From a virus (Duplodnaviria; Caudoviricetes): DNA of 56,591 nt. This document shows, piece by piece, positions 1 to 43,749 of the stretch; within the stretch, counting starts at the first letter, position 1, and each line of letters opens with the position of its first letter. The notes beneath the pieces are model-generated. The model was not told the origin of the DNA, did not search any database, and saw nothing but the letters and a program-made list of their open reading frames with translations. Where the stretch lies: positions 1-56,591 of IMG/VR virus record IMGVR_UViG_3300027861_000038; one strand, 5' to 3'. The position numbers and the translations under genes are program-made.

Positions 1-70
1 AAGGTTTTAGTCGGTGCTTCCGTAAAAAAAAAGGCAGTATGGAATCATTCTTGGTGGATGGTTCTTTGGA
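1..70. repeat. Left copy of terminal overlap (near-identical to 56521-56591)
   Basis: aaggttttagtcggtgcttccgta(A)n ggcagtatggaatcattcttggtggatggt occurs at both window ends. The A-run is 9 nt here and 10 nt at the right end, and there are 2 substitutions near the end. Confidence 0.95.
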
Positions 71-6000: not shown

Positions 6001-9000
6001 TGATTACGCAAAGGAAAAAAGGTGCAAGAGATTTAAACGCAATAAAAACAGAGCTAAGGAACTTTATCAGGAAGACTATACCAAAAGCCACGTACACTAA
6101 ACCTGAAGTGATAAACTTAATTAGAAAGGTTAGCATTGCGAATGAGGCAAACATTGATAATATATATAATGAGGTATTAGAGTTTACAACGAAGAAGAAT
6201 GTAGAGATACTATCTAAAAATATTAATAAGATTTTAAGTGAGACATTCACTAAGGTTGAAAGCGGTAGGCTCAAAGGTGTAAAGATTGATGTCGCAAGCA
6301 AGGAGAGAATTGATGCAATCAAGAAGATGTTAGCTACTGAAGAGATGAGTGCTGAAGATATTCTTAATGCTAATGTCCTGCTAATGGCAGAGTATGTTGA
6401 ATTGCAACAAAATCCTGAGCCGACTATTGAGAGTCAATCCAAGATGTCAGACATTCAGATAGCAATGGAATACAATAACTCATTGCTAATGGAAGATACC
6501 GATATAAACAAGGTTACCTCTTTGGATTTAGTAAGCACATCTCTTGACGAGCTAATACAGGATGGTGTTACAAGATTAGATAGAGAGCTACAGATGGCTT
6601 CTCAAAAATACAAGGAGACATTTGAGTATATATATGAGGATGTTGTTGGGGAGCGTATTGATATGGACTCTCCTGATGCCAAGACAAGATTAGACAAGGC
6701 AAAAAGAAACAGAGCCACTCAGGCTGAGAGGGAGAGAGTTGCCGGCAATATCAAACGTGCGTTGAACATTATAGGTAGAGGTATATCTAATGTCTTTACA
6801 TCTGCCGAAGCACTCGATGGATTGATGGATAAGATTTCGTCACTACCGGGAGAGATGTTTGGTGGCAGGACTCAGGAGATAGTTACAGATAGGATTGATG
6901 CCGCATCAAGAGAGTTCAAGGGTAGGAAGATGTATGTAAGTGAGAGAATCAGAAAAGAACTTGAAGAAATCTATGGTAAGAAATGGAAGGAAGAGGCAAT
7001 AAAAAACACAAAGACAATTGGTACTGAGATATATAGGGATACACAAGAGATAGCTGATGCAAAGAAAGCATACGAAGCAAATCCTAATAGTGCTACAAAG
7101 GAAAGTTTAGCTAACGCCATATTAAACAATGAATTAATCTTGAGTCCGAATCAGATGTACTATTACTACAATCAATTCAAAGACCCTGCAAACCTTGGAG
7201 CATTCTCAAATATGTTTTCTCTTGAGAGCATTAGTAAGAATGATACACAAGAAGAGAAAGACCGCAAGAATAAAATAAATGAGGCGAACGCTAAGAGGGT
7301 AATGGATGAGGTTACATCTAAGCTGACTCCTGAATTAAAAACATTTGCTGATTGGCAGGTGAATGAGTTTTTCCCTGAGCTGTATGAGAGATATAATCCT
7401 GTATATAAAAAGATATACAGGACCAATATGCCTTGGAATGAGTTCTATGCAGGTATAATATACAGACAGGGAGTTGAGCTTGAGCCAATGGATTTACTCG
7501 CAGGATTAAATAGCTCATCTATGTCAGCAGTTACAGCAGCATCAAGCAAGATAAGGAAAGCTAACAATTTAGAGATAGCTAAGACGGATGGTACGAATGC
7601 ATTAGCAAACTACCTTGAGGATATGGAATACTTTGCAGCATATGCAGAGGTTATAAGAGATGTTAATAAGCTATTTACTAACGAGTATATTTCTGATGCC
7701 ATAACAAGTATGCACGGGAAGACTACAATGAATCTAATAAACGATTCTATTAAGAAGATAGCAAACAGAGGTGTGGCTAATACAACAGCAGACAGCCTTG
7801 TTAATGGTATGAACACCATATTTGCTACATCAAGAATTGGATTGAGTCCTGTTATTGCAGTTAAGCAGTTGACATCTGTATTCACATTTGCTAATGATAT
7901 TGGTATAGGTAATTGGGTAAGCTATGCAGGCAAGAGTATACCTGAGATATCAAAGACTTGGAAGGAAATAGTTGAAAACTCTATATACCTAAAAGATAGA
8001 TATGGCGAACAGATATTAAGAAATATAGAGAGCTATAGTGAGTCGTCAATGAAAGATTTTGTGCCAAACCCTACTAAAGAATTCATTATGAATGTCATAC
8101 TATACAATGTTAAGTGGGGAGATAGGACTGCTATTATGGTAGGTGGTATGCCTAACTATAATTTCTACAAGGCACAGTATAAAAAGAATAATCCCAACGC
8201 TACCGAACAGGATGCTATTGACTATGCCATAGTAAAGTTTGAAAGGGATACAAAGAGAACGCAGCAATCAGGTGACCTTCCTGATAAAGATGTATTTCAA
8301 ACAGGAAGCCCACTTGTAAGGGCAGCGAATATGTTCTTGACAACACCAAAGCAGTATCTAAGAAAAGAGATACAGGCAGTAAGGAATCTTAGCAGGAAGG
8401 TTTCACAATGGGATAAAAATGCAGGTAAGGGTACGGTAACAGAGAACATAAGAACCTTTCTTATGTACCACATATTTATGCCTGTGCTATTCCAATATAT
8501 ATCCGCAGGGCTACCGGGATTGTTTGCTGATTGGGAGGATGAAGATGAGCAAGACTTATTGAGAGCAGGGATACTTGGTAACCTTAATGCATTGTTTATA
8601 ATAGGTGAGGTTATTACAGGCATTGGAGATTATCTTACTCATAAGCCGTGGGCAGGTGAAGGTACTAAGTCAGTTGGTTTACTAAACCTCTCATCACAAT
8701 TGTTTAAAAAAGCAAAGAAGGCAAGAGATGCAAAAGACCTTGAGAAGAAATCTAAATATTGGAATGACTTTATCTTTGAGTCTGCAACAATAACGGGTCT
8801 ACCTGTACCAACATTAACGAGATTGTTTGAAAACATAACAGACATAGGAAGCGATAATGATATGGGTAAGGATGTCTTGAGACTTTTAAACTTTTCTAAA
8901 TACCAAATAGATGGTCCGACTAAGACTAAGGCTAAGGCTAAGACTAAGGCTAAGGATGATAGTGTAAGCACTACACCGGGATACTTTAGGAGGGGTGCTA

Positions 9001-9053
9001 AAAAGAAGAGACGTTCACGAAAGAGGTCTTCAGGTGGGCGAAGATTTTTTTAG
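39..9053 (+). CDS. Giant virion/ejection-type polyvalent protein with zincin-like HExxH domain; true start probably 56356, across the junction
   Basis: 3004 aa ORF, last of three putative internal-virion genes after the tail module. It has TPIHEYGHIW (4743-4757), an acidic N-terminus, Gly/Ala-rich hydrophobic segments and an Arg/Lys-rich C-terminus. Confidence 0.75.
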   Translation: MESFLVDGSLEPQESDAEVKNLESFLTEQLEETPTQEVQPKYYEEVEAPSEAQIQDAAQADEEAERQSQVRELGGIEKVTQFDEVYDDPETQFEINLENITPELVEGSEEKVVPFLNEIFEQEGFKFEEVSPLSDQMLVYPPGGGAPKLFELDANTEIEEKFLNKGLYNPRYARRVNPTLSKNIAKELKKFITDNREEVVPEGEGKMFMTDARRKNAIKANKDREARYKNNTKEYKELNASIEKDAEVFRDLSKEDINADPETRERYESYIDNIKTAEIQREALIEETKILAEKGVELDVIAANSAEAQALRGDWLGGLYNSFLGGVGDIGAGLAGTGIDIATNFQKNAGSGLSDEQFKKEIIRVSKENDIELPENAEEMTLEGLEKAMGGRAYSRAPETYNEPTPYLQAFNKVLDISRKGKKYFDDYEGAKKGRARSVFSRTADYADLGEGTLSAIRKSVVDALGDKNTTEQWAELKSEGFLGGAVLGLSRSLPAMSAALLGGVPGVLALAAQASDSIYKEMENDPDFADISESEKMKVALPIALTVGVLERVGLRNAIRGTGMLNKLVSKAIGKSTARTTAKEFTDLVETEIASGVAKGLIRAGAAGAAEFETGFLQEIADVTVKDMYNESKGKKMFDTPDTFVDMISDAAYAGAQEAVGGFILGSPRAVQSAISGNTVLSDEEFQSLEAFVQNPELLNVYKDKLKSKVASGLMTLKGANNELTSLKTGLGIIRDTEAFFTGDVPVSEKSEAFTLVSRKKQLQQEIEGADPELVTPQREELKKVNERLTEISKIDAIQEQSTETVDAQEPAESSPTMGDTVSETETITEPTEVDKAKVEEEVAYIERRREEELNLEKPFKQKNDGSGLVEIKTTVTEEDGIKKTTFKTKTTNRKGESRELFDKGYNTIDDLFEDLGFEETYEGEEKVLRDLAQEGRIAVKEVREINGVSVASIEIAGSVLDVSLNKRNKDNAKYDAEIAEVRAAQQVEEEATTEQEVEDFEAFIESDNAQFQLSQGTTDEKTKKKQTREALKVFKELDNQPLAEDAVEVEQPDVATTPVKVEDNNRLANKIKRFKMIDIIGRKLNLLMADKLKVELKDPTKPYSKETNPYKMMGGNFFPLMEDMFGKIAWASITDAATTKIIKGAMDGDYSVVYNMGNGGIMSNIIIAEMLDEKIPEGRKAEFYELIKDRVNESGLKDVKPAKKHIKDSTDMNSFFKLLQEEKVETRAAVMELILPEDLDIKSKSTLEQELQGLGISRDSLIEETSESFAKDLPTGAITMVLEITNKDGIKVSELKKQLDKKLKNKEITENQYDKGIEDIIASAKMTQEQQEAEGIPIHNNYPYYIRGRAVAMMEETVPFYKVIKQYSDTLQERVLGRDKKKARGIKEGLKDFEERVYTIINKAKGDKVSTVDKKAAIQEVLDSEDFKKLKVKDRKVIKPLLEQALELNSKSKITEVLAVAETPLAKMRRYSAAEAQAAAMTSAMTTSSTAYAISDYVASDYEIFLNRISKSFPNVEVVSTQEEFDALIEDVYAKSLSTKNQTIYGAVYRGKLYLNPRQRNFNTPIHEYGHIWLNTAKQERPDLYKKGMELITKDNAYIEQIKNNPDYIRVVKQMKKGGATDAEIDSYIKEEALATAIGDKGEAFVNASVKRNFKEWLTDLFKNIQKLFGISTYTSEQLQDITLDEFLQGITVDILSGKEVFKDASTKAFSDALQLMTSTETKGLTPTQIIQVGRDNNFKDSTIKDYLVRIKGNKVKDIDALLSTPVDLFSDKFPESFNNIEGGAAKGTRLYDRVNKFANKLIQKNNKNTRLTDLELNAKVEEFAREQKKDYITNSQLNDKVREFRETLEAKNSKRKKPLTASQINAKVKDFRESEIIAREETNSIIQENITEFKDNLTESNNRKAPLLSKQDIVDKTIEFLEAQPEYIAEADTYTVGSEKKGTKETKRRKGLSTQQASMLSDLQKVIGIRPSQDMAAKISKARRMITQRKKGARDLNAIKTELRNFIRKTIPKATYTKPEVINLIRKVSIANEANIDNIYNEVLEFTTKKNVEILSKNINKILSETFTKVESGRLKGVKIDVASKERIDAIKKMLATEEMSAEDILNANVLLMAEYVELQQNPEPTIESQSKMSDIQIAMEYNNSLLMEDTDINKVTSLDLVSTSLDELIQDGVTRLDRELQMASQKYKETFEYIYEDVVGERIDMDSPDAKTRLDKAKRNRATQAERERVAGNIKRALNIIGRGISNVFTSAEALDGLMDKISSLPGEMFGGRTQEIVTDRIDAASREFKGRKMYVSERIRKELEEIYGKKWKEEAIKNTKTIGTEIYRDTQEIADAKKAYEANPNSATKESLANAILNNELILSPNQMYYYYNQFKDPANLGAFSNMFSLESISKNDTQEEKDRKNKINEANAKRVMDEVTSKLTPELKTFADWQVNEFFPELYERYNPVYKKIYRTNMPWNEFYAGIIYRQGVELEPMDLLAGLNSSSMSAVTAASSKIRKANNLEIAKTDGTNALANYLEDMEYFAAYAEVIRDVNKLFTNEYISDAITSMHGKTTMNLINDSIKKIANRGVANTTADSLVNGMNTIFATSRIGLSPVIAVKQLTSVFTFANDIGIGNWVSYAGKSIPEISKTWKEIVENSIYLKDRYGEQILRNIESYSESSMKDFVPNPTKEFIMNVILYNVKWGDRTAIMVGGMPNYNFYKAQYKKNNPNATEQDAIDYAIVKFERDTKRTQQSGDLPDKDVFQTGSPLVRAANMFLTTPKQYLRKEIQAVRNLSRKVSQWDKNAGKGTVTENIRTFLMYHIFMPVLFQYISAGLPGLFADWEDEDEQDLLRAGILGNLNALFIIGEVITGIGDYLTHKPWAGEGTKSVGLLNLSSQLFKKAKKARDAKDLEKKSKYWNDFIFESATITGLPVPTLTRLFENITDIGSDNDMGKDVLRLLNFSKYQIDGPTKTKAKAKTKAKDDSVSTTPGYFRRGAKKKRRSRKRSSGGRRFF

Positions 9054-10866: not shown

Positions 10867-12360
10867 TCACAAAGATAGTAAATCCTTTTTAAAATGGTTA
10901 ACAGTATAATCTTTTTTCTTGCTGACAGCTTTATATATATCTCTCTCTATGCCACCCTTGGCAAAGACCCAATACACATCTGACTCAAGTCTATCCTTGG
11001 TTGTCATCCTATCCCGGCTCTGCCAATAAGATGTAGCACTAAAGTCTATGTTATAGTAGACAAGAGCCTCAGCCTGTCGTAGTGAGATACCCTCACGACC
11101 TGACACTATCTGTAGTGCTATCGACTTGTCTGTGTCTTCAAAGACACTAAGCTCTGTGGTTAGGCTATCCTTTCCGTATACCTCCATCAATGCGTTCAAC
11201 TCTTCTTTAAACTTATAGAAGATACCAATCTTGGCATCAGCAAAGTTGTCGTGTATATACTTGGCTTTACTCAAGTCTATAATCTTAGAGTTGCCCGACT
11301 CAAACTTAACTGTGCCTGAGTATATCTGATGTAGTTTCATCATTAGCTTTACAGGAGTATCGCCAAGTATGGTCTCCTCTTTTCCCTCGACTACTAAGTT
11401 CTTCTTTAGCTTGCCTGCTATGCTGTGTGTTAGGTCTGACATCTCTACCTCAAGTACGTGCTCTCGTGTGTCTACCTTGAAGCCTGCCTCTTTTTGAGTG
11501 TATGCAATAGTGTATGGCTTCATCTTGTCCAATATAGTAGTCATACCATCCTTGTATTCGTTGATAAATAATCCGTTTATCTTTCTCTGCTTTACTATCA
11601 CATAGTCTTTAGCAAACTTATAGAACGATACATACTCCTTGAATGGGTTAGATGGTATGGCATATACTTGGTGGTACATCTGACTATAAGACTCAGGTGT
11701 TGGCGTACCTGATAGCAGTATCACGGATGCCTTGGTCTTCTTAATCATATCCCTTACTGCCCTTGCTCTTTTACTTGGCTTAGGGTATGCTCCCATACTA
11801 TGAGCCTCATCACAGATGATGACATCAAACTCAATTGAACTATCAACCTTGTGTAGTGACTCGTAGTTTATAACCACTAAGTTGTAGTCGGGTCTGAGTA
11901 GATTAAAATCATTCTCAATACTACTGATTGCCTTCTTCTTTGTTATGAACAGGACATTCTCACAGCCCATAAGCTGCGATATGCCCATACTTGTAAGTGT
12001 CTTACCTGTCCGCACCTCCATAGCTAAGTATAAGAAGCCGTGCTGCATAAGTATCTGTGTGCCTTTTGATATTATCTCCTCTTGATAATCTCTGAATTTA
12101 ATTTGTTTTGGTTTTTCCATTAGTTCTTTGTAGTGTGTTAGCGATGCCTTGGTCTTGGCATCTAATTCATTGCTTGACTCGTAGACTCTTGTCTTTACGA
12201 TGTGTGAAGCCCGACCTCGACCCACCTTCTTTTCTTTGGTTCTGAATATAATATTGTGGAATATCTCGCATTGTCTATGCATCATCTCGTCTGAAAATCC
12301 TGCTATCCTTTTAGTTATCCCACTCTTATATTCTCCCTTTAATATATGTGCCTCATCCAT
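10867..12360 (-). CDS. SF2 (SNF2-like) DNA helicase
   Basis: Q motif FRDYQ, Walker A EVRTGKT, DEAH box, SGTP motif III, GREGISL and QSRDR. Confidence 0.9.
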   Translation of the reverse strand: MDEAHILKGEYKSGITKRIAGFSDEMMHRQCEIFHNIIFRTKEKKVGRGRASHIVKTRVYESSNELDAKTKASLTHYKELMEKPKQIKFRDYQEEIISKGTQILMQHGFLYLAMEVRTGKTLTSMGISQLMGCENVLFITKKKAISSIENDFNLLRPDYNLVVINYESLHKVDSSIEFDVIICDEAHSMGAYPKPSKRARAVRDMIKKTKASVILLSGTPTPESYSQMYHQVYAIPSNPFKEYVSFYKFAKDYVIVKQRKINGLFINEYKDGMTTILDKMKPYTIAYTQKEAGFKVDTREHVLEVEMSDLTHSIAGKLKKNLVVEGKEETILGDTPVKLMMKLHQIYSGTVKFESGNSKIIDLSKAKYIHDNFADAKIGIFYKFKEELNALMEVYGKDSLTTELSVFEDTDKSIALQIVSGREGISLRQAEALVYYNIDFSATSYWQSRDRMTTKDRLESDVYWVFAKGGIERDIYKAVSKKKDYTVNHFKKDLLSL

Positions 12361-15308: not shown

Positions 15309-16037
15309 TTATAGTTCTTCTGTTATGAAGTATTCATTTATATCCTCCTTTGGATTCTCACCAAAGAACTTATGATATACTGATACTGCTCTCTTTACTT
15401 TCTCTTCGCCTCTTGCTACAAACTCCTCTGATGGATGGTATATACCAAGCTGCTTTGTTGTCTTGTCTACCACATAGAATACTAATGGCTTACCAAATAG
15501 CTTCTGATATATGTAGCATTGACTATCGTAGTTATACTTACGTGCTGACCACTTGAACTGAGTGATATCTCCCGTGGTCTTTAGGTCAATCAGCTTATCG
15601 TTACATACGATGTCAGCCTTACCCTTCCATTGGAGTCCATCAATAGTTGTGATGGCAGGAACCTCATACTCTACACCCTCAGACCTTACTCCCTCAAAGA
15701 ATGATAGGTTACCCATCATTGCATTGACGCAGTCTCGAATCTCTTGTCCCTCTTTCTCAAGCATAATGATACCACCTGCATTGGCATTAACCTGCTCCTT
15801 GTATGCCTTTGTATTCCTACTTGACACATCAATGAAGTTGGTCTCTGCTGCCTTCTCAGGCTCAAGTATTAGCTGATGAAAGTATCTGCCCTTGTGATAG
15901 TTTACATTATCATTCTGTGGCTTTCTGAAGTTTGTTGGGTCATTCAGTAGTGTGCCTATGTCTGAGTTAGACAGGTACTGCTTCCCAAACGAGCCGTAAT
16001 ACTGCTCGTCATCCCTAAGCAATTCTAATACGTCCAT
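15309..16037 (-). CDS. RecE/ExoVIII-like PD-(D/E)XK exonuclease (DUF3799-like)
   Basis: LSNSDI...G..FH..ILEP, WKGKADIV, IDLKTT and YNYDSQCYIY. Confidence 0.8.
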   Translation of the reverse strand: MDVLELLRDDEQYYGSFGKQYLSNSDIGTLLNDPTNFRKPQNDNVNYHKGRYFHQLILEPEKAAETNFIDVSSRNTKAYKEQVNANAGGIIMLEKEGQEIRDCVNAMMGNLSFFEGVRSEGVEYEVPAITTIDGLQWKGKADIVCNDKLIDLKTTGDITQFKWSARKYNYDSQCYIYQKLFGKPLVFYVVDKTTKQLGIYHPSEEFVARGEEKVKRAVSVYHKFFGENPKEDINEYFITEEL

Positions 16038-16038
16038 A

Positions 16039-16680
16039 CTACTTAGTTATCTTTTTAATCTCAGCGAGTGCATTGTCGCTAAGTGTGTATGATGAACTTA
16101 TCTTTTTAACTACTGCATTGTATCCGATAGCCTTGTTCTCTTTACAGAAATTTACCAATGCCTCCCACTTAGGGGAGTCAGTATCCACTACCTCTGACTT
16201 ACTTGGTGTAGGCTTGATTGGCTCTTGTGCTATCGTATCTTGTGGCAAGTCATCGCCTGAGTATAGGTATATACCTAAGCCGAACATCGCAAGGTTCTTA
16301 ACCAAGCATCTCATAATCGTCTTATTGATATCAAATGCCGTGGCAGCAGCAACCTGCTTCTCTCCATATCGTGTAGTGTAAGAGTATGCAACCTTCTTCA
16401 TCGCTTGATTTTTGCTATCCATTACAGGTAGCCACATCGTTAGCGTCTCTCCATCTATTGTTACAGATGTGTAGCACATAATACCTAAGTCATTGTCCAC
16501 TAACATCTCGCCTATCTCATAGGTGGCATCGGGGCAGTTACTCTTTGTAAGACTCCACGCATTTGCCCAAGACAGATACGTTAGGTTACTCTTCTTCTCA
16601 ACGTATTTGTTGACGTTGATGGCAGATAACTTCTCAAAAGTAGTCTGCTTTTTTGTTGTTGTTTTTTTAGTTGTTGTCAT
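16039..16680 (-). CDS. Sak-like single-strand annealing protein (DUF1071)
   Basis: FEKLSAINVNKYVEKKSNLTYLSWANAW, MWLPVMD, DINKTIMRCLVKNLAMFGLGIYLY. Confidence 0.85.
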   Translation of the reverse strand: MTTTKKTTTKKQTTFEKLSAINVNKYVEKKSNLTYLSWANAWSLTKSNCPDATYEIGEMLVDNDLGIMCYTSVTIDGETLTMWLPVMDSKNQAMKKVAYSYTTRYGEKQVAAATAFDINKTIMRCLVKNLAMFGLGIYLYSGDDLPQDTIAQEPIKPTPSKSEVVDTDSPKWEALVNFCKENKAIGYNAVVKKISSSYTLSDNALAEIKKITK

Positions 16681-19363: not shown

Positions 19364-19842
19364 AATTTTTCCTTTACTTTTTTCCAATATTTTTTTGTTG
19401 ACCTTTTCTTATCTCCTCTATGTCCACCATTCCATTTACGTGCTACTATCTCATAGAACTCTAACCTCGTTAACCCATCGCAGCACTCAACCTCCTCTGC
19501 CATTATCTCAAACATCTCTAATGATTTAACCCTGCTCCACCTATCGTTCAAGGTGTATCGCATCTGTATGTCATTAAGCTTTAGGATTCTGTTAACCTCA
19601 CGCACCATTATAGGACGTATCTGTAGGCATCCTACGGCATCTTCCTTACGGCAGTACGCATTGTCATTACCTCTGCTCTCCACTTGGATGACTGCTGCCA
19701 CAAAGCTATCCCATACCACCACCTCTTCTTCTATTGGCTCAGTCTGTACTTTTATCTGTGTCTTTGAAGGCACATCCACTCTGATGGATGATAGTAGCAG
19801 TATGACAAATATTGCTATCACTATTGTTGTTACTCTTTTCAT
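19360..19842 (-). CDS. N-terminally anchored lysozyme-fold (SLT/destabilase-like) muramidase
   Basis: Signal-anchor N-terminus, then AVIQVESRG, AVGCLQI, ARKWNGG and YWKKV. Confidence 0.8.
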   Translation of the reverse strand: MKRVTTIVIAIFVILLLSSIRVDVPSKTQIKVQTEPIEEEVVVWDSFVAAVIQVESRGNDNAYCRKEDAVGCLQIRPIMVREVNRILKLNDIQMRYTLNDRWSRVKSLEMFEIMAEEVECCDGLTRLEFYEIVARKWNGGHRGDKKRSTKKYWKKVKEKL

Positions 19843-21952: not shown

Positions 21953-22162
21953 TTACTTACTTTTTTGAGGTAATACAAGGTAAACAATCGCTCCCAGTAA
22001 GGATAGAATAAACAAGGTAGTGATACTGAATGACACCATCGTAAAGATGTCATTACTCACATCCTCTGCCATTGAGACAATCATTCTCGCTGCGTTCACG
22101 AATACGAATAGCAATGCATTTGCTATTAAAAACTTCTCTGTAATTTTAATTAATTTTTTCAT
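21953..22162 (-). CDS. Small two-TM membrane protein
   Basis: Two hydrophobic helices. TAnnTTTG core at 22195-22202 (minus). Confidence 0.6.
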   Translation of the reverse strand: MKKLIKITEKFLIANALLFVFVNAARMIVSMAEDVSNDIFTMVSFSITTLFILSLLGAIVYLVLPQKSK

Positions 22163-22222
22163 ATTTTTTTTTATCTTTTTGTTGTTAATTTATTCAAAGG
22201 TAATACCTAAATTGTACAGATC

Positions 22223-22432
22223 CTAATCTGTTTCAGCTATCTCGTTTAACTTTAGCCAAAAATCCTTATATCCGTGAGCATTTACTGCAATTCCCGAATG
22301 TTGCCAATTGTGAGGCGAGTCTACTTTTTTAGTAACCTTTCGCCATCTTAATGAATTTCCACCACGAAGATGAATAGGTTTGCACCTTACCATCTGACCT
22401 ACTTTAATTCTTTCTACTTTTAAATTTTCCAT
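22223..22432 (-). CDS. Array gene 12, hypothetical
   Basis: 69 aa, downstream of hairpin R1. Confidence 0.65.
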   Translation of the reverse strand: MENLKVERIKVGQMVRCKPIHLRGGNSLRWRKVTKKVDSPHNWQHSGIAVNAHGYKDFWLKLNEIAETD

Positions 22433-22495
22433 AATATTTTTTTTCTGTTACTACCAATAGCCCTATACCAAATGGTATAGGGCTATTAGTTTGAT

Positions 22496-23047
22496 TTAGA
22501 ATGATGGGTCTCTGTACTGTTCAGCTACTCCAAAAATAATCGAAGTTCTACTGAAGTTTTTGTACTTCTTTGTCAAACCGTCAATTAGCTTATGATAGAA
22601 CATTCCTTCTCCTTCTCCTTCAACTATATCGTCATATGTCAAACCACGTTCTGATAGTAATATGTCCAGCCATCCGTATCCGTACTCCTTGTAGTACTTC
22701 TTCTCTAAGGACTTAATTATATCTACAGAGTAACTAATTTCTCCCCAACAAGATTTCTTTGCATTCCATTCTAACGTTAATGTATGTCCTTCTGAATTGT
22801 CGCTATACTCATAACGCTCGTCTCCGTAACTCTCTCCTACAAACTTAGTGTTCATTTCTTGAATCACGCAGCTCAAACCATCATCGGACACCTCAATAAC
22901 TTGGTACGCTTGTCTGTCTGAATACCCTAAAATTGTTGCACCTTCTCCAACAATTGGAATGCTTGAATTGTTGCCCATCATTTGGTTAATAAAGCCTCCA
23001 GCAACACCAACTTTTCTACTTTGTCTTTTTTCTATTTCGTTTTTCAT
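22496..23047 (-). CDS. Array gene 11, hypothetical (VGEGATILGYSDRQAYQVIEV motif)
   Basis: 183 aa, downstream of R2. Confidence 0.75.
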   Translation of the reverse strand: MKNEIEKRQSRKVGVAGGFINQMMGNNSSIPIVGEGATILGYSDRQAYQVIEVSDDGLSCVIQEMNTKFVGESYGDERYEYSDNSEGHTLTLEWNAKKSCWGEISYSVDIIKSLEKKYYKEYGYGWLDILLSERGLTYDDIVEGEGEGMFYHKLIDGLTKKYKNFSRTSIIFGVAEQYRDPSF

Positions 23048-23106
23048 AATATTTTTATACTACCAAATCCCGTACACCAAGTAGATGTACGGGTAAGTTT
23101 TTTACT

Positions 23107-23433
23107 TTAAATTTGAGACCAATCCGACCATAATTGTGCAATCAAAAGATTCTCAATATCTATTTTATTATATATCAAATGATATATATTTTCAAATGCC
23201 ATTTGCCTTTCATTTTCAAACCTTTCTCCTGTCAATATAGATGTATCAAATGGTGTAAAATCTCCAATTATTCTGCTTATTTCCCTTGCTTTGTGGTAGT
23301 ATATTACGTTTTCGTCATTATCAATCATCTCCCAAATTAGGTCATTTAGTGTATCAATATCTTCAATTTCATTGTCTGCAATTAAATCTTTGATTTGCTC
23401 TGTGTACTCGTTTATTAAATTTTCTATTGTCAT
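23107..23433 (-). CDS. Array gene 10, Ocr-like acidic DNA-mimic (anti-restriction) protein
   Basis: Start MTIENL lies right after R3. MTIENLINEYTEQIKDLIADNEIEDIDTLNDLIWEMIDN...YY aligns by eye with T7 Ocr [39 protein letters not shown]...YY (Ocr recalled from memory). Confidence 0.6.
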   Translation of the reverse strand: MTIENLINEYTEQIKDLIADNEIEDIDTLNDLIWEMIDNDENVIYYHKAREISRIIGDFTPFDTSILTGERFENERQMAFENIYHLIYNKIDIENLLIAQLWSDWSQI

Positions 23434-23479
23434 ATACCACCAAATCCCGTACACCAATTAAGATGCACGGGTATTGATG

Positions 23480-23528
23480 TGTTATTTGCACGGGGGCAAA
23501 TGTTATTTGCACGGGGGCAAATGTTATT
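23480..23528. repeat. 21-bp tandem repeat (TGTTATTTGCACGGGGGCAAA)x2.3
   Basis: Exact copies at 23480-23500 and 23501-23521, then a partial TGTTATT. Confidence 0.95.
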
Positions 23529-23532
23529 ATGA

Positions 23533-23973
23533 CTATGCACCTATAGCCCTTTCAGATTCTGCATATGCGATATTATATGCTTCCTCATTAATGCATCTGT
23601 CGTTGATGCTTAGAATTTTTTCTTGTTGTTGGGTTAAGGAATCATAGTCAATTATATTATTAATCTTAGTTCCTCCACAGGCATCACATTCAATGTCTGT
23701 TCTTCCACTAAAATAATCCTCGTGAAAACCCTCATCTATAATTCCATTTTCATCGTACATCATCGATGAAATGTCATATCCTCCCACATCATATCTTGAC
23801 CTATGCCCACTTCCATTACAGGTGTCACACCAATCAACTTTGCAAGGTAGAATGGTTTTACAAATCCCATCTGAGATAGTTATTTTAGACTTTAAATCAT
23901 CTGAGAAATCTTCTTCCTCGTATCTGTAGATAAAACTTTTGTGCAATTTGTATTCAATTTTTTTACTTTTCAT
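23533..23973 (-). CDS. Array gene 9, CxxCxGxG zinc-finger protein
   Basis: CDTCNGSG and CDACGGTK. Start MKSKK directly follows R4. Confidence 0.7.
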   Translation of the reverse strand: MKSKKIEYKLHKSFIYRYEEEDFSDDLKSKITISDGICKTILPCKVDWCDTCNGSGHRSRYDVGGYDISSMMYDENGIIDEGFHEDYFSGRTDIECDACGGTKINNIIDYDSLTQQQEKILSINDRCINEEAYNIAYAESERAIGA

Positions 23974-24037
23974 ACCACCACATCCCACATACCAATGAAG
24001 ATATGTGGGTAAGTGTTTGTGATGGGTTTGCTTTGTT

Positions 24038-24184
24038 TTAAATTATTATTAATATAAATTTCCGAAATGGCAGTTTAATTCTATAAATTGACCCGTTGTA
24101 ATTTTTGTAAGCTAATGATATTATTTTAGCTTGGTTGTAATTCTTTGCAAATGTTCCGATTCGTACTTTCATTTTTGTGTTCAT
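24038..24184 (-). CDS. Array gene 8, 48-aa basic peptide (MNTKMKVRIGTFAKNYNQAKIISLAYKNYNGSIYRIKLPFRKFILIII), missing from the ORF track
   Basis: Hand translation. It fills the slot between R4 and R5 and has the same A-rich AAAATATT-ATG leader as array genes 1, 11 and 12. Confidence 0.6.
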   Translation of the reverse strand: MNTKMKVRIGTFAKNYNQAKIISLAYKNYNGSIYRIKLPFRKFILIII

Positions 24185-24250
24185 AATATTTTTTTTCTGT
24201 TACCACCTAAACCCGTACACCAATTAAGATGTACGGGTATTGATGTGTTA

Positions 24251-24478
24251 TTATAAATTATCTCTACTTGAGTTATTTACTATCATTTGACTGGTAGGTG
24301 CTATTCCAAAATAAGTGTTTAATTTACCATATATATGTCTACAATGGTTCATTATTTTCTCTGAATCATATTCTAATTGTTCCCCTTTGTAATCTGTAAC
24401 GGGATACCATATAGTTTCAAACCCTTCATTCACGAAAGTTACCCAAGCCATTTCTTTATCTAATTCTATTCTGTTCAT
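24251..24478 (-). CDS. Array gene 7, hypothetical
   Basis: 75 aa, ATG directly after R6. Confidence 0.75.
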   Translation of the reverse strand: MNRIELDKEMAWVTFVNEGFETIWYPVTDYKGEQLEYDSEKIMNHCRHIYGKLNTYFGIAPTSQMIVNNSSRDNL

Positions 24479-24539
24479 ACTACCAATAGCCCTACACCAT
24501 TTGGTGTAGGGCTATTGTTTGTGATGTGATAAGGATTAA

Positions 24540-24767
24540 TTAATTTTCCTCTAAATGTTGCTGAATTAAATTGCTTTCTATTAAAAAGCATCCGATGATT
24601 TTAGATTGGGCAATTTCGGTTAAAATCTTATCTACTGAGTAACCTTTTATGCCGAAATTACGATACAAATATTGAATTCTTAATGCCTCAAGTAATTCTT
24701 GTGCATCGCCATTTAAGATTTGCTTTTTTTCAACTTCTACCAATTTATTAAATTCTTTTCTTGTCAT
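24540..24767 (-). CDS. Array gene 6, hypothetical
   Basis: Start MTRKEF directly after R7. Confidence 0.7.
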   Translation of the reverse strand: MTRKEFNKLVEVEKKQILNGDAQELLEALRIQYLYRNFGIKGYSVDKILTEIAQSKIIGCFLIESNLIQQHLEEN

Positions 24768-24826
24768 ACTACCAAATCCCACAAACCAATTAAGATTTGT
24801 GGGGATTGTTTTGTGATATGTTTGGA

Positions 24827-25048
24827 TTAATGGAAATATAAATCTTCGTGAGACGTTGCTCCAATTGGCTCGCCATACACATAGTCGTTTATTGCCTTAT
24901 CCATCAACTTGTAATAGATGGAATCGATGTACTCATCCCTACAATTGCTTTGCATCTGGTTACCATCGCTGAAATGCACTTTAAACACTGGACTCATTCC
25001 TGCTCTAACGCGATAAATTTTAGTTACTTTTAAATCTGTTTTTGTCAT
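24827..25048 (-). CDS. Array gene 5, hypothetical (MTKTDLKVT...)
   Basis: 73 aa, ATG directly after R8. Confidence 0.75.
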   Translation of the reverse strand: MTKTDLKVTKIYRVRAGMSPVFKVHFSDGNQMQSNCRDEYIDSIYYKLMDKAINDYVYGEPIGATSHEDLYFH

Positions 25049-25104
25049 ACTACCAAAACCCGTACACCATTAAGATGTACGGGTATTGATGTGTTTGTTG
25101 TTGT

Positions 25105-25368
25105 TTATGTCCAATAATTTTTAATCCTCAAACCTTTAGTTCTTATGGCTTCATTCATTTCGGCAGAACTTACGGTAAAAAAATTATCTTTGAAATCTTG
25201 AAAGAATTCGTAAGAATTTTCCCAATTTTCTATGTGTTTTTTTGAATCCACGAAAAGAAATGCTTCTTCTTCGCTTTCAAACTCATCGATAACTTTGTTA
25301 TTGTTACCTCCATCTATTAAAAAATAGGTGCTTTCATTTGTTGTTACTTTTAAATCTGTATCTGTCAT
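25105..25368 (-). CDS. Array gene 4, hypothetical (MTDTDLKVT...)
   Basis: Start directly after R9. Confidence 0.75.
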   Translation of the reverse strand: MTDTDLKVTTNESTYFLIDGGNNNKVIDEFESEEEAFLFVDSKKHIENWENSYEFFQDFKDNFFTVSSAEMNEAIRTKGLRIKNYWT

Positions 25369-25428
25369 ACTACCAATACCCCACATCCATTGTCTAGGAT
25401 GTGGGGTATTGTTTGTGATGTGATGTTG

Positions 25429-25674
25429 TTAGTATAATTCGCTTTTTTCGATTCGCTTTACCTCATATTTTGGCAACTCATAGCAATAGTCTAAATATTT
25501 ATCAAATGAACTTTCGCATTTTTTGTCCCATTTTTTGTAGGATTTTTCATCCCCTTCGCTATCTGCAATGTTTCTTAGATTGTCGTATTCATTGTACTTT
25601 TTTAGCCATTGTATGGCCTTCTTGAAATTGCTTTGATTCGCTTTATTTTTTGCTTTAAATTTTGTATCTTTCAT
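25429..25674 (-). CDS. Array gene 3, hypothetical
   Basis: 81 aa, ATG directly after R10. Confidence 0.75.
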   Translation of the reverse strand: MKDTKFKAKNKANQSNFKKAIQWLKKYNEYDNLRNIADSEGDEKSYKKWDKKCESSFDKYLDYCYELPKYEVKRIEKSELY

Positions 25675-25729
25675 ACTACCAAAACCCCTACACCAAATGG
25701 TGTAGGGGTATTAGTTGTGATGGTCATAA

Positions 25730-25975
25730 TTATCCTTTATAATTTACCTTTATCCAACTTAATAAAATGTCTTTGTTTTGGTCATCTAATTCCATAAACC
25801 AAGAAAAAAAAGCTAGTGTACCTTTTCGTTCATACATATCGCTAAACTTAGATTGTAAGTGATTTGACATACTATCCTTCCATACTTGTGAGATGAAATT
25901 TGTAGGGTAATTATGCCCAAATAACATAAATTTAGTGATTGCTTTTGATGTGTTTTTAAAATCTGTGTTTGTCAT
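25730..25975 (-). CDS. Array gene 2, hypothetical (MTNTDFK...)
   Basis: 81 aa, after R11. Confidence 0.75.
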   Translation of the reverse strand: MTNTDFKNTSKAITKFMLFGHNYPTNFISQVWKDSMSNHLQSKFSDMYERKGTLAFFSWFMELDDQNKDILLSWIKVNYKG

Positions 25976-26034
25976 ATACTACCAATAGCCCTATACCAAA
26001 TGGCATAGGGCTATTGCTTGTGATGGGTTAGGGA

Positions 26035-26358
26035 TTAAGATAATAATCTTTTAATATCTGCTTCTGTTTTTTTACGTTTAGCTGATTCCATTTCGTATGC
26101 AATCACCTCTTTTTGCACAAACCATTCCACAACTGCTCTGTTTTCATCCATACCATCACAACCCCAACTTGTGCCCGAAACACCGTCTTTTTTAACCCAC
26201 ATAACTGCTTGGAATAAATCACCATACTTTGGATTGATTTCTACACGATAGTTTACTTCCAATCCATTCTCAAGATGAATAGTTTTCTTGCCGTTTTCTT
26301 TGTTTGCTACAACTGCAAATCTGTCTAATTTCTGTAATAATTCTTTAACGTTTTCCAT
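26035..26358 (-). CDS. Array gene 1, hypothetical
   Basis: 107 aa, after the divergent hairpin R12. Confidence 0.75.
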   Translation of the reverse strand: MENVKELLQKLDRFAVVANKENGKKTIHLENGLEVNYRVEINPKYGDLFQAVMWVKKDGVSGTSWGCDGMDENRAVVEWFVQKEVIAYEMESAKRKKTEADIKRLLS

Positions 26359-26428
26359 AATATTTTTTGCTTTATATCACCAAAACCTCGCAGCCGTGGT
26401 ATGGCTCGAGGTTCCAATTTATTTTAGT

Positions 26429-26440
26429 ATGTCAATGAAC
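26429..26440 (-). promoter_or_regulatory. boxA-like antitermination motif GTTCATTGACAT
   Basis: Resembles rrn/lambda boxA (GCTCTTTAACA) and lies in the array leader. Confidence 0.45.
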
Positions 26441-26511
26441 CAGGGTAGTCCCTACTATAGTGTCCAATAAAATGGACGCTGCTTTCGGGGTCGGTTACCT
26501 TTTCAACAATG

Positions 26512-26519
26512 CAAATATA
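26512..26519 (-). promoter_or_regulatory. Bacteroidota -7 promoter element TATATTTG driving the early array
   Basis: CAAATATA on the + strand matches TAnnTTTG. It is ~155 nt upstream of array gene 1. Confidence 0.65.
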
Positions 26520-26705
26520 ATATCACAGATATCATATAAACTAATTTCTTTGTAAAATAAATTAATCTTTTGTTAATATATTATCTTGTATCTCAGCAAT
26601 ACTGCGCCTTTCAGAGCGAAATTTTTTTTGTGTTTTTTTCCCTTCATTCGTTTAGGCTGGCAAAATTGCGCCCAGGGATTAAGCCTTCCCTCAAGGTATG
26701 CAGGC

Positions 26706-26857
26706 TATATATATATATATTGTATGGGGATATTATACGGGTATGGGGTAACGGGTAACGGGTAACGGGTATAGGTACGGGGTGCGTAAAACGGGTAGGT
26801 AGGTAGGTAGTGCCATAGATAATGTAGGTAGGTATGTAGGTAGGTAGTGCCATAGGT
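26706..26857 (+). repeat. Low-complexity G-rich block: (TA)n, (GGGTAAC)3, (GTAG)n, GTAGGTAGGTAGTGCCATAG x2
   Basis: Read directly. It lies at the divergence of the two transcription arms. Confidence 0.9.
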
Positions 26858-26984
26858 AAACGCCAAAAAATTGGACTGCAGGGATCACATCAACACCCCA
26901 CCCTAACTTTTTTTTTCGGTTTTCTTTTTCGGCAACTTTGCGTGCAACCCCCTATAACCCAAATAGTATATACAACTAATGTGT

Positions 26985-26992
26985 TATATTTG
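26985..26992 (+). promoter_or_regulatory. TAnnTTTG promoter core (first of a set)
   Basis: Other + copies upstream of genes: 27651, 30146, 31217, 34418, 41048, 44578, 52938. Minus copies: 10870, 18185, 22195, 26512. Confidence 0.7.
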
Positions 26993-26995
26993 CAT

Positions 26996-27139
26996 ATGAG
27001 TTATAAGATATCAATACACAATCGCATATTCATAGGCTTCGCATTGGGATGGAGTTACTATGGGAAGACAGAGGAATATGACTACAGTGAGTTCACATTG
27101 TTCTTAGGGTTGTTGAGTATCGTTATAGTAAGAAGTTGA
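26996..27139 (+). CDS. Small hydrophobic protein (MSYKISIHN...)
   Basis: ATG just after the promoter core. 47 aa. Confidence 0.55.
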   Translation: MSYKISIHNRIFIGFALGWSYYGKTEEYDYSEFTLFLGLLSIVIVRS

Positions 27140-27143
27140 TATT

Positions 27144-27341
27144 ATGAAAATGTTTAAGTATAAAAGTATGGGCGGTCTTCGAGTAGAGGACGGTAGATTA
27201 GTTAACGACCGTGAAGACGGTGTAACAGGAATTGCGAAAGCTGCAAACGTCAAACAGATGATGAAGCGAGCAAAGAAAGTTGATATGATAGCGGACGGAA
27301 TTAGTCTTGCTGAAGCCAAGAAAGGATTTTATAGGATGTAA
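27144..27341 (+). CDS. Hypothetical protein
   Basis: 65 aa, followed by a terminator. Confidence 0.65.
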   Translation: MKMFKYKSMGGLRVEDGRLVNDREDGVTGIAKAANVKQMMKRAKKVDMIADGISLAEAKKGFYRM

Positions 27342-27368
27342 ACCTATAATTTTGTGTTGTTCATTTAT

Positions 27369-27395
27369 AAGGGAATTTAACGATTCCCTTTTTTT
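27369..27395 (+). terminator. Intrinsic terminator
   Basis: AAGGGAAT-ttaacg-ATTCCCTT followed by a T-run. Confidence 0.8.
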
Positions 27396-27445
27396 GTGTT
27401 TGTTTTTTACATTTCAATGCTCTTTTTATGCTCTTTTTTTTCTTC

Positions 27446-27566
27446 TAACTTATTGACTATCAATAGTAGTGTTTAAAATGCTTATTTTTTCTTTCAAAAG
27501 TTCTATAAGTAAAAATATATATTACTACTACTACTACTACTACTATAGGGGAACCGGAATTTTACA
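27446..27566. repeat. Copy 2 of ~120 bp non-coding element, contains (TAC)7
   Basis: Homologous to 14820-14937. Confidence 0.75.
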
Positions 27567-27687
27567 TTGAGCATTGTTGGGATTGTTGGGAGTAGTTGGG
27601 ATTATTCCTAACTCCCAACTTTGGTATTACCCTAAGTGAATATTTTTATGTATCTTTGCAATAGAATTAAATACACTCTAAAATTAT

Positions 27688-29271
27688 ATGTCAGAAATCG
27701 GATACACTCCCAAGAACTTATTGTTCAATGAAGATGGTAGAGAAAGATTATTCTCAGGTATTGAGAAATTAGCAAATGCGGTCAAGTCAACATTAGGACC
27801 ATCAGGTCAGACTGTACTTATCGAGTCCCCACAACACACACACGGAATCACAGTTACCAAAGATGGTGTAACGGTAGCCAAGTCAGTATCACTCCTTGAC
27901 GCTACAGAGAATCTCGCTGTACGCATTATGAGGGAGGCAAGTGAACGAACTGCGACTCAGGCAGGTGATGGTACTACAACAGCCATAGTATTGGCTGAGG
28001 CACTCGTAAAAGAAGCCTACAAGCATTTGAACGATGGTAAGCACAACAAGACTATGGTATTGAGAGATATCGTAAGTGAGACTGAGAAGATTGTAAGCGA
28101 GTTAAAGAAGAAGAGCCGTAAGGTAAACAAGTCGACCCTAAGGGATGTGGCTACCATATCAGCGAACAATGACAAGGAGATTGGCTCCATCATCGCTGAG
28201 GTGTACAAGAAATTAGGCAAGCACGGTGTTGTTGCGGTTGACAAGTCACAGACCTCTGAGACATACTATGAGGCAACGAGTGGTATCAAGATTGACCGAG
28301 GGTATGCAAGCCCATTGTTTGTGAACGACCAAAAGAAGGACGAGTGTGTACTTGAGGACGTATTCATCTTGGTATCAGATGCAACGATTGAGAACATACT
28401 TCAGATTGAGACGGTATTGAAACCAATCATTCAAGAGAACAAGCGACTATTGATAATAGCCCCGACATCGGGGAATGTGACGAACACATTAGCTGCGAAT
28501 GTTATGAAGAGTAACTTACAGTTGTGTGCGATACAGCCACCAAACTTTGGATACAAGCAGCACGAGCTTATGCAAGACATAGCGATAAGTGTTGGTGCAA
28601 CGTACTTTAGTGAGAAGACGGGTGATGACCTAAGTCATATGACGTTTGCTGACTTGGGACACGCATCAAGGGTTGTGGTAGGCACAGACTCAACGGTTGT
28701 GATAAAGGATGACAATGCGTTAGAGGATGAGATTAAGAGTAGAGCAGAGGAGTTAAGGATTGCTGCTGACAATTCAACCAAGAAGGCAGACAAAGAGTTT
28801 ATAATGTCAAGGATAGCCTCATTGATGGGTGGCGTAGGTGTCATCTATGTAGGTGGGAATACTGACCTTGAGCAGAAAGAGTTATACGATAGGGTTGACG
28901 ATGCGGTATGTGCGGTACGTTCGGCACTTGAGGAGGGTATACTACCCGGAGGAGGCGTTGCCTTGTACAAGATGGCTGAGGGTATTGACACGAGCACGGT
29001 ATCGGGTAAGATACTATCAAAGGCTTTAATGGCTCCAATGTTGCAGATATATGAGAATGCAGGACTGACTGTAGGTGGCTCACGTATGAGTGATGAGTTT
29101 AACTACGGACAGGACGTAAAGACTGAGGAGTATGGAGATATGTACGAGTTGGGTGTTATAGACCCTGTAAAGGTTACGAAGTGTGCATTGCAGAATGCGG
29201 TGTCGGTTGCAGTAACTATCCTATCAACCAATGCTATCATCACGATGGCGAGAACATACGAAGACAAATGA
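27688..29271 (+). CDS. groEL: Phage-encoded chaperonin GroEL
   Basis: AVKSTLGPSG, TKDGVTVAK, AGDGTTTA, VATISANND, GILPGGG and GVIDPVKV. Confidence 0.97.
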   Translation: MSEIGYTPKNLLFNEDGRERLFSGIEKLANAVKSTLGPSGQTVLIESPQHTHGITVTKDGVTVAKSVSLLDATENLAVRIMREASERTATQAGDGTTTAIVLAEALVKEAYKHLNDGKHNKTMVLRDIVSETEKIVSELKKKSRKVNKSTLRDVATISANNDKEIGSIIAEVYKKLGKHGVVAVDKSQTSETYYEATSGIKIDRGYASPLFVNDQKKDECVLEDVFILVSDATIENILQIETVLKPIIQENKRLLIIAPTSGNVTNTLAANVMKSNLQLCAIQPPNFGYKQHELMQDIAISVGATYFSEKTGDDLSHMTFADLGHASRVVVGTDSTVVIKDDNALEDEIKSRAEELRIAADNSTKKADKEFIMSRIASLMGGVGVIYVGGNTDLEQKELYDRVDDAVCAVRSALEEGILPGGGVALYKMAEGIDTSTVSGKILSKALMAPMLQIYENAGLTVGGSRMSDEFNYGQDVKTEEYGDMYELGVIDPVKVTKCALQNAVSVAVTILSTNAIITMARTYEDK

Positions 29272-30436: not shown

Positions 30437-30798
30437 TGCCAAAGGACGCTTGCTATAAGAAGGTAATGAAGAGCTACGGCAAGTGGTCGGCTCGTGCAGC
30501 TCAGGCTACGGCTAAGTGTCGTAAGGCTAAGGGCAAGGTGCGAAAGACCAAGGCAGGCTCTAACCTAAAGAGGTGGACTGCTGAGAAGTGGGTTGACACC
30601 CGTACAGGCAAGCCCTGTGGGACAGGCGGAAAGAGCGAGTATTGCAGACCATCAAAGAGAGTGTCTTCAAAGACACCCGTAACCAAGTCTGAGATGTCTA
30701 AGAGTTTGTTAAAGAAGAAGCAGGCTCAGAAGAAGAGTATAGGCAAGCAGGGTGCAGGAGGAAAGAAAGTATCACCAATAAGAAAAAAACGAAAATGA
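30436..30798 (+). CDS. Basic Cys-containing protein (DUF5872-like)
   Basis: KDACY...WSARAAQ...LKRWTAEKWVD...CRPSKRVSSKTP. Confidence 0.65.
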   Translation: MPKDACYKKVMKSYGKWSARAAQATAKCRKAKGKVRKTKAGSNLKRWTAEKWVDTRTGKPCGTGGKSEYCRPSKRVSSKTPVTKSEMSKSLLKKKQAQKKSIGKQGAGGKKVSPIRKKRK

Positions 30799-43696: not shown

Positions 43697-43712
43697 GAAG
43701 TAAATTAATAAT

Positions 43713-43749
43713 GGGATGGGGCTACATATGTAGCCTCTCCCTTTTTTTT
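43713..43749 (+). terminator. Intrinsic terminator after MCP
   Basis: GGGATGGGGCTACA-ta-TGTAGCCTCTCCC followed by T8. Confidence 0.85.

Follow-up and report, generated by a model that had tools for sequence, protein, structure and literature searches.

The DNA analysed here, hereafter the window, is the whole of IMG/VR virus record IMGVR_UViG_3300027861_000038 (56,591 bp, linear, ~93% complete), from what looks like an uncultured marine podophage with Bacteroidota-looking translation signals. Its minus strand carries 12 short hairpin repeats (R1–R12, 22430–26424), one before each gene of an array of 12 small genes, and within these repeats pairing, not sequence, is under selection. Comparison with relatives indicates that the same units are the homologous-recombination joints of a hypervariable gene-cassette region. 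The reading that we favour, and to which we give about an even chance, is that they are promoter-less intercistronic RNA hairpins that punctuate a polycistronic early mRNA while also serving as recombination joints. The repeats had been picked out in an earlier note made from the letters alone; their positions and the nine 5′ arms quoted there were recovered, each arm with a complementary 3′ arm.

Each unit has an A/C-rich 5′ flank, often CAUCACAAnnAAUA. A 10-bp stem, C/G-rich at its base, closes a loop of 4–8 nt, and a 3′ flank (nUUnGGURRU) leads to the AUG; the module measures ~55–80 nt. Loops vary in both length and sequence, and the apical pairs Y-C...G-G are kept while the stem bodies vary. 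The stem lies 7–12 nt from the AUG in eight of the 12 copies, and in R1, R8, R11 and R12 an A-rich spacer of 21–26 nt stands between the two. The first codons (MTxTDLKV...) are common to several unrelated cassette proteins, and the repeat therefore extends ~25 nt into the coding sequence. An Rfam scan of the whole window returned no family at or above the gathering threshold. From the first gene of the array to the last, the units are as follows.

26356..26424, minus strand: R1 unit, stem CCUCGAGCC/GGCU(G)CGAGG with one bulge; minimum free energy (MFE) -20.2, z -5.0
25973..26027, minus strand: R2 unit, stem GCCCUAUGCC/GGUAUAGGGC, one G-U
25672..25723, minus strand: R3 unit, stem CCCCUACACC/GGUGUAGGGG; AUG inside the predicted lower helix
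25366..25421, minus strand: R4 unit, stem CCCCACAUCC/GGAUGUGGGG, 8-nt loop
25046..25098, minus strand: R5 unit, stem CCCGUACAUC/GGUGUACGGG, one G-U
24765..24819, minus strand: R6 unit, stem CCCACAAAUC/GGUUUGUGGG, one G-U
24476..24527, minus strand: R7 unit, stem GCCCUACACC/GGUGUAGGGC; 15 continuous bp
24182..24253, minus strand: R8 unit, CCCGUACAUC stem; long A-rich spacer to the AUG
23971..24025, minus strand: R9 unit, stem CCCACAUAUC/GGUAUGUGGG; flanks CCAUCACA/UGUGGUGG pair
23431..23487, minus strand: R10 unit, stem CCCGUGCAUC/GGUGUACGGG, two G-U
23045..23107, minus strand: R11 unit, CCCGUACAUC stem only, 10 bp, without lower pairing; long spacer
22430..22497, minus strand: R12 unit, 17 continuous bp; long A-rich spacer

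To assess the pairing, 10 copies were aligned (alignment A2), with R1 and R4 excluded because they fell out of register in MAFFT. All 100 cells of the upper stem were paired, four of its 10 pairs showed changes on both sides (15 cells), and the covariation score of 0.294, compared with 0.128 for shuffled alignments, was reached by none of 500 shuffles. When the pairing partner was shifted by 1–3 columns, pairing fell from 88.8% to 31–45%. The window copies were used to build a covariance model, which, when run on 80 related IMG/VR loci, found the family in a single one, L010. The model missed R1, which is divergent; this copy occupies the 5′ leader of gene 1 and is set off from the AUG by a long A-rich spacer. 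Its equivalent in L010 scored 26.7 bits. A scan of metagenome contigs for the flank-gap-flank pattern yielded five more contigs with arrays. Across the resulting 29 distinct copies (from the window, L010, L104, L114, L117, L119 and L120), pairing was seen in 87.8% of cells; the covariation score was 0.302 against 0.135 for shuffled alignments, again reached by none of 500. Moreover, all units fold much better than their own shuffles (sense z -3.0 to -8.5). The proposal in the earlier note that structure is selected over sequence is borne out by both sets.

The imperfections in the stems bear on which strand folds. The upper stems of R2–R12 contain eight G-U pairs and no A-C; six of these represent a single closing pair (AUC/GGU) that the copies share, and the independent G-U events in the window thus number ~3. 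The 37 unique copies reduce to 17 distinct stems with 154 Watson–Crick, 12 G-U, one A-C and three other cells, corresponding to ~7 independent G-U events versus one A-C. The lone A-C stem (L114:4112) and a G-U stem (L119:51) are a reciprocal pair of hybrids, as a crossover in the loop between stems with a single differing position would produce. In the flanks, 15 copies have C-G at the pair formed by alignment columns 15 and 50, and 12 have U-G. The sense-strand MFE lies below the antisense value in all 12 units; for whole spacers this is so in 10 of 12. Both the G-U character of the imperfections on the mRNA strand and the preference for folding on the coding strand, as earlier claimed, are seen in these counts. 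On the favoured reading, the fold would act in RNA rather than in single-stranded DNA. The predicted MFE duplex spans 16–21 bp in 11 of 12 copies, often as an upper stem with an internal loop and a lower helix; the extended duplex of ~20 bp described previously fits these 11 and fails for R11, with its 10 bp.

The genes of the array, each directly 3′ of one unit, and the two promoter-like boxes beside it are listed below.

22223..26358, minus strand: array of 12 small genes
26035-26358, minus strand: gene 1, after R1
25730-25975, minus strand: gene 2, after R2
25429-25674, minus strand: gene 3, after R3
25105-25368, minus strand: gene 4, after R4
24827-25048, minus strand: gene 5, after R5
24540-24767, minus strand: gene 6, after R6
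24251-24478, minus strand: gene 7, after R7
24038-24184, minus strand: gene 8, after R8
23533-23973, minus strand: gene 9, after R9
23107-23433, minus strand: gene 10, after R10
22496-23047, minus strand: gene 11, after R11
22223-22432, minus strand: gene 12, after R12
26512..26519, minus strand: candidate -7 box TATATTTG, ~90 nt upstream of R1, presumed sole promoter of the array
22195..22202, minus strand: candidate -7 box TACCTTTG, just 3′ of the array

Each of the 12 genes has a unit ahead of it (that of gene 1 lies in the leader), and there is none beyond the last gene. The -7 promoter box of Bacteroidota has the consensus TAnnTTTG. In a search of 22000–27000, minus-strand TAnnTTTG occurred in intergenic DNA only at 26519 and 22202, with no intergenic match between 22203 and 26511, and matches of sigma-70 type were not enriched (28, with 29 expected). 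A host-type promoter in each unit was rejected on these grounds, as far as consensus matches can show. The region around the upstream box is conserved in L010, and no -33 TTTG was found at 16–23 nt from that box; the downstream box is a candidate for the start of the next transcription unit. Because promoter boxes only flank the array, it reads as one operon of 12 promoter-less genes, presumably transcribed as a single message. Pfam assigned a family to none of the 10 array proteins tested. PHROG matches were obtained for four of the 10, three of them to families of unknown function only. The fourth, the gene 9 product, has in addition a match to a family of Q-like antitermination proteins, which is weak and unconvincing (E 0.005, with no stretch that passes). 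Its translation also contains two CxxCxGxG motifs of the DnaJ zinc-finger type, and L114 carries two gene 9 paralogues.

Comparison with relatives was used to examine the units as boundaries of gene exchange. In L010, the GroEL is 98% identical to that of the window and both flanks of the region are ~92% identical in nucleotide sequence (87–95%); default blastn returned no L010 match to window 22234–26508. Instead, L010 contains five units of the same family, with homologues of genes 3 and 10 side by side together with other genes. The layout, one unit per gene and none after the last, recurs in L010 and in L114. In L114, 12 units accompany 12 genes, and the gene order in window numbering is 9′, 8, 7, 10, 4, new, 5 and so on. 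In L117, an additional cassette lies between two units. A search of greater sensitivity against five contigs gave 26 internal homology end-points, of which 24 fall within 15 nt of a unit and the remaining two are the outer array borders in L010. The same stem is found with different flanks and downstream genes, and the same gene behind different stems. Fifteen joints were listed in contigs of four metagenome runs from four studies, and 19 of their 30 end-points lie in a unit or within 10 nt of one (~5 expected). In most of these joints one side measures just 28–47 nt, and cross-matching between repeats may account for them; only the long-sided ones were relied on; one 1,050-nt contig with sides of 241 nt shows the gene order 8-7-10. 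A direct 21-nt duplication (AACATTTGCCCCCGTGCAAAT twice, 23488–23532) lies just upstream of R10; 21 nt of it are missing from one metagenome contig, and one joint ends at 23514.

The crossovers are spread over the unit, falling in the loop, the flank and the first codons, and neither a tyrosine recombinase (PF00589) nor a serine recombinase (PF00239) was matched in the 93%-complete record. Together, these two observations make ordinary homologous exchange the likely route. Two adjacent genes of the phage would perhaps supply the machinery for exchange between such short repeats.

15309-16037, minus strand: exonuclease (PHROG E 5.6e-28)
16039-16680, minus strand: Sak-like single-strand annealing protein (PHROG E 7.1e-49)

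In the mechanism that we envisage, the host would make a polycistronic early transcript from one upstream promoter, with each orphan gene of the single early operon preceded by one promoter-less module. The module would fold on the mRNA as a stable local helix that insulates the start region of each cistron, and the hairpin would supply a protective end to processed messages. The 16–21-bp forms would be substrates for host RNase III, as at the five early sites of T7. At the DNA level, the modules would be the joints at which cassettes are gained, lost and reordered, with exchange proceeding via the exonuclease/annealing-protein pair. RNase III was not found among the genes of the phage, and the B. 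thetaiotaomicron genome, a Bacteroidota control, has the enzyme. By analogy, cleavage of the longer hairpin forms is plausible, and the units may act through cleavage or stabilisation of the mRNA.

The early region of T7 offers what appears to be the closest functional model. Its early RNase III sites (R0.3, R0.5, R1, R1.1 and R1.3), one before each early gene, share an anatomy of upper stem, internal loop and lower stem. Like them, the units are predicted to form irregular hairpins, mostly of ~20 bp, that fold on the mRNA strand of what is here probably a host-transcribed polycistronic early RNA, with one before each gene, the first included. By contrast, some of the phage copies have only 10–11 bp, the sequences are unrelated, cleavage is putative here, and the T7 sites are not known as recombination joints. 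In T7, the host polymerase makes an early precursor of ~7,000 nt that RNase III cuts at five sites (PMC4858673).

With respect to genome plasticity, the units most recall the promoter-early stem-loops (PeSLs) of T4-like phages (Arbiol et al. 2010, PMC2839356; Comeau et al. 2014, PMC4122927). As described there, PeSLs are short repeated stem-loop modules between small non-essential orphan genes of a hyperplastic region, and recombination between copies leads to insertions, deletions, replacements and reordering among close relatives. The array likewise sits among small open reading frames (ORFs) in a hyperplastic region that differs from the close relative L010. However, PeSLs are described as carrying a strong host-type early promoter, whereas none is seen in the unit and the cassettes would rely on one upstream promoter; the PeSL stem is given as a conserved motif, whereas that of the unit varies with compensation; and the host signals of this phage are Bacteroidota-like, without Shine–Dalgarno sequences. 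PeSL stem-loops are further said to terminate effectively, whereas the units would be poor sense-strand terminators by the U-tail rule, none of the 12 having at least five T in eight on the sense strand. By the consensus scans, the units lack the promoter that defines PeSLs, and probably their terminator function too.

This last contrast bears on the possibility, which we regard as unlikely, that the units are leaky sense-strand intrinsic terminators or attenuators that step expression down along the operon and leave 3′ hairpins, as in PeSLs. A G/C-rich stem base followed by UUUU, AUUU, UAUU or UUUA would suit such a role, as would the effective termination reported for PeSL stem-loops (PMC2839356). 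However, the U-tails, already judged too short in the earlier note, all fall below the rule, whereas the ordinary terminators of the phage have runs of 5–7 T (43707–43748; 27369–27390). Furthermore, what stays invariant in the tail is GGU and not U, and one unit lies in the leader of the first gene while none follows the last. Termination in the opposite direction, with the units shielding the early operon from read-in by antisense (plus-strand) transcription, is extremely unlikely: R3, R4, R7 and R12 do pass the terminator rule on the plus strand, with the U-rich tail UAUUGUUUGUGAUG, but it is these four that have no G-U, folding on that strand is markedly poorer for the remaining eight (z -1.3 to -4.3), and no plus-strand promoter evidently faces the array. 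The units might instead be an operator, bound by a protein that recognises hairpins. A phage translational repressor, for instance, could silence the early cassettes jointly by reading the conserved flanks together with the pairs that close the loop, whatever the sequence of the stem. The conserved single-stranded flanks, the Y-C...G-G apical pairs on variable stem bodies and the position 7–12 nt from the AUG in eight of 12 copies are in keeping with this idea; the 21–26-nt distance in the other four, the differing loop length (4–8 nt) and sequence, and the lack of a recognised RNA-binding protein among the 35 window proteins scanned are not, and we consider an operator distinctly improbable.

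A comparably low probability attaches to the view that the units are palindromic repeats, selfish or neutral and without a function in RNA, which recombination spreads and template-switch or gene-conversion correction keeps palindromic. Mutation is known to arise through the correction of quasi-palindromes, the array is lineage-specific, and the units move with or between cassettes. Yet such correction predicts equal numbers of G-T and A-C intermediates, whereas 12 and one were observed; none of the 37 unique copies has a hybrid stem with multiple mismatches, despite common crossovers within units; and the layout is strictly one per gene in a single orientation. Transcribed palindromic repeats of bacteria include REP/BIME and the neisserial Correia/NEMIS elements, the latter cut by RNase III. 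These are also intergenic imperfect palindromes, co-transcribed as hairpins that affect mRNA processing or stability; the units differ from them in lying in a phage, strictly one per gene, in one orientation and tied to a start codon.

Hairpins acting in single-stranded or supercoiled DNA, either as a structure-specific recombination site resembling integron attC or as a promoter of the N4 type, are very unlikely in our view, although several features would agree with them: structure is kept while sequence varies, folding is strand-biased (G-T being tolerated in DNA too), and promoter-less cassettes in one orientation behind one promoter are permuted in order between relatives. The attC sites of integrons are imperfect palindromes of conserved structure and variable sequence that fold strand-specifically, and integron cassettes are promoter-less. 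The likeness thus extends to conserved structure with variable sequence between promoter-less, same-orientation cassettes that share one promoter and vary in content and order. However, no integrase (IntI), or any other tyrosine or serine recombinase, is found in the 93%-complete record, no R″/R′ core motifs were seen in the unit flanks, attC sites follow their genes whereas the units precede them, and crossovers are not confined to one point of the unit but fall at several. The hairpin promoter of N4 is used by a virion RNA polymerase and comprises a template-strand hairpin with a 5–7-bp stem and a 3-nt loop; the units have 10-bp stems, loops of 4–8 nt and a better fold on the non-template strand. 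A 3,016-aa ORF (3–9053, plus strand), E/K-rich and truncated by the 5′ end of the record, was considered as a virion RNA polymerase and rejected, as it has no Pfam, PHROG or PDB match, no DxDxD and no T7-type motif B or C; the idea of an N4-like promoter was rejected with it. Atlas neighbours of this ORF have LPD38/LPD39 'polyvalent protein' domains, and it is probably an injected multi-domain protein. A related proposal is an integrase-free counterpart of the integron, in which single-stranded sense-strand hairpins would be joints read by their structure, and the exonuclease and Sak-like protein would excise the promoter-less cassettes and re-insert them behind one early promoter. If it were true, the fold would be selected for cassette mobility as well as on the mRNA, but we give this proposal a very slim chance.

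Several observations weigh against the favoured reading, that of intercistronic RNA hairpins doubling as recombination joints. RNA and non-template DNA share a sequence and are indistinguishable here, and compensatory change in a DNA palindrome can arise through template-switch correction without selection on RNA. With so few independent G-U events (~7 versus one), the assignment of folding to the mRNA strand is suggestive rather than decisive, and an A-C stem does exist (L114:4112). R11 and two L010 copies, at only 10–11 bp, are short for RNase III. The lower helix, which had been proposed to reach the AUG, does so in the predictions for several copies; it covaries only weakly, at two pairs with one cell apiece in the 29-copy set. 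The AUG is mostly paired (predicted probability of being unpaired <0.2) in only three of 12 copies, and its accessibility resembles that in 34 control phage genes (means ~0.45 and 0.48). Sequestration of the AUG as a general feature was rejected for this reason; with a long A-rich spacer in four of 12 copies as well, the earlier suggestion that processing frees each start codon does not hold generally. A Shine–Dalgarno-like role for GGURRU was also rejected, as it lies 0–3 nt from the AUG and a Shine–Dalgarno-like core occurs in one of 46 leaders. In addition, no RNA run is present among the 21 runs listed as containing the region.

The layout is also rare, which likewise counts against the reading. 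A survey of the 7 kb upstream of GroEL was valid where the match starts at 10001 (31 loci); 16 other loci, which lack a full upstream flank, are not counted. Hairpin-preceded ORFs number 10 of 16 in the window, four of 14 in L010 and 0–4 per locus in 30 other full-flank loci. Because one hairpin per gene is rare in relatives, the arrangement is not required for early expression in the clade and would be an accessory device. In broader pattern searches, GGGNNTTGGTAGTATGACA occurred in seven IMG/VR loci, none matched by the covariance model and hence attributed to chance; the flank-gap-flank pattern occurred in two IMG/VR loci, one with a weak model match (23.8 bits) in apparent coding sequence, which was set aside; and the same pattern in 185,579 species genomes gave four single matches at chance level in unrelated taxa, with no clue to the host. 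Megablast of the array region against GenBank phages found no match, and a full-text literature search combining phage names with hairpin terms gave, among the papers listed, none that names Flavobacterium or Cellulophaga phages. In L010, a weak model match outside the array lies at 5130–5183 on the minus strand (23.2 bits, E 0.042). In L012, a relative with 73% GroEL identity, five identical hairpins (GGGGAGCGCAATGCTCCCC) form a separate array at ~6876–8754, each ~20 nt 5′ of a small early gene with an A/C-rich spacer after it; these occupy the same position as the window units and are unrelated in sequence.

Phages keep fast-evolving host-takeover and counter-defence genes in early arrays of this kind. 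Known joints explain how such genes are exchanged and allow cassette boundaries to be called automatically in metagenomes. With this case, the PeSL idea would reach past the T4-like phages into a large marine clade that is uncultured. Here it takes a promoter-less form, with RNA structure rather than sequence under selection, and occurs in a host group that does not use Shine–Dalgarno sequences. In such hosts, the choice of start site is thought to depend on local RNA structure; a portable AUG-adjacent hairpin is therefore a testable device for context-independent expression.

The phage encodes a large terminase, a portal protein, a primase/helicase, a separate helicase and a GroEL-like chaperonin (27688–29271, plus strand). 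Querying IMG/VR with this GroEL returned 436 related stretches, which point to a large uncultured marine phage clade. The DNA runs that contain the region are marine or seawater metagenomes, and part of the array occurs in 14 studies. The closest GenBank record by GroEL is that of the uncultured podovirus MW202828.1 (59.6% identity), followed by Flavobacterium and Cellulophaga phages at ~39%. The scarcity of Shine–Dalgarno-like cores (one in 46 gene leaders) and the 46% A content of the leaders fit a Bacteroidota host. The host can thus be described as Bacteroidota-like only; the Flavobacterium host assumed in the earlier note goes beyond these signals, which establish no genus.

Between the early operon and GroEL lies a 1.2-kb non-coding divergent region (26450–27687), which may be an origin or a genome end. 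It contains CCTAC/CTACCTAC runs, three copies of CCCGTTA, a (TA)n run and, at 27499–27538, a (TAC)n/(TAG)n run; relatives have a (TAG)n run at the same place.

A second repeat, a perfect 16-bp palindrome (GTGTCTTCAAAGACAC, GTGTC-N6-GACAC), occurs at 11132–11147 and 30661–30676, with a near copy at 19758–19773. It was considered as an equivalent of the hairpin units and rejected, being invariant, spaced at 1–2 kb and also present in coding DNA, where both exact copies of the window lie. The sequence is the same in many relatives (L001, L014, L015, L021–L023, L037, L046, L056 and others), with the variants GTGTCTTCGAAGACAC in L069 and L070 and GTGTCGTTAACGACAC in MW202828.1. Up to 14 copies are found per locus, one every 1–2 kb, 5′ of minus-strand genes and sometimes within longer variable stems or with T runs after them, and the palindrome would seem to be bound by a sequence-specific factor found throughout the clade.

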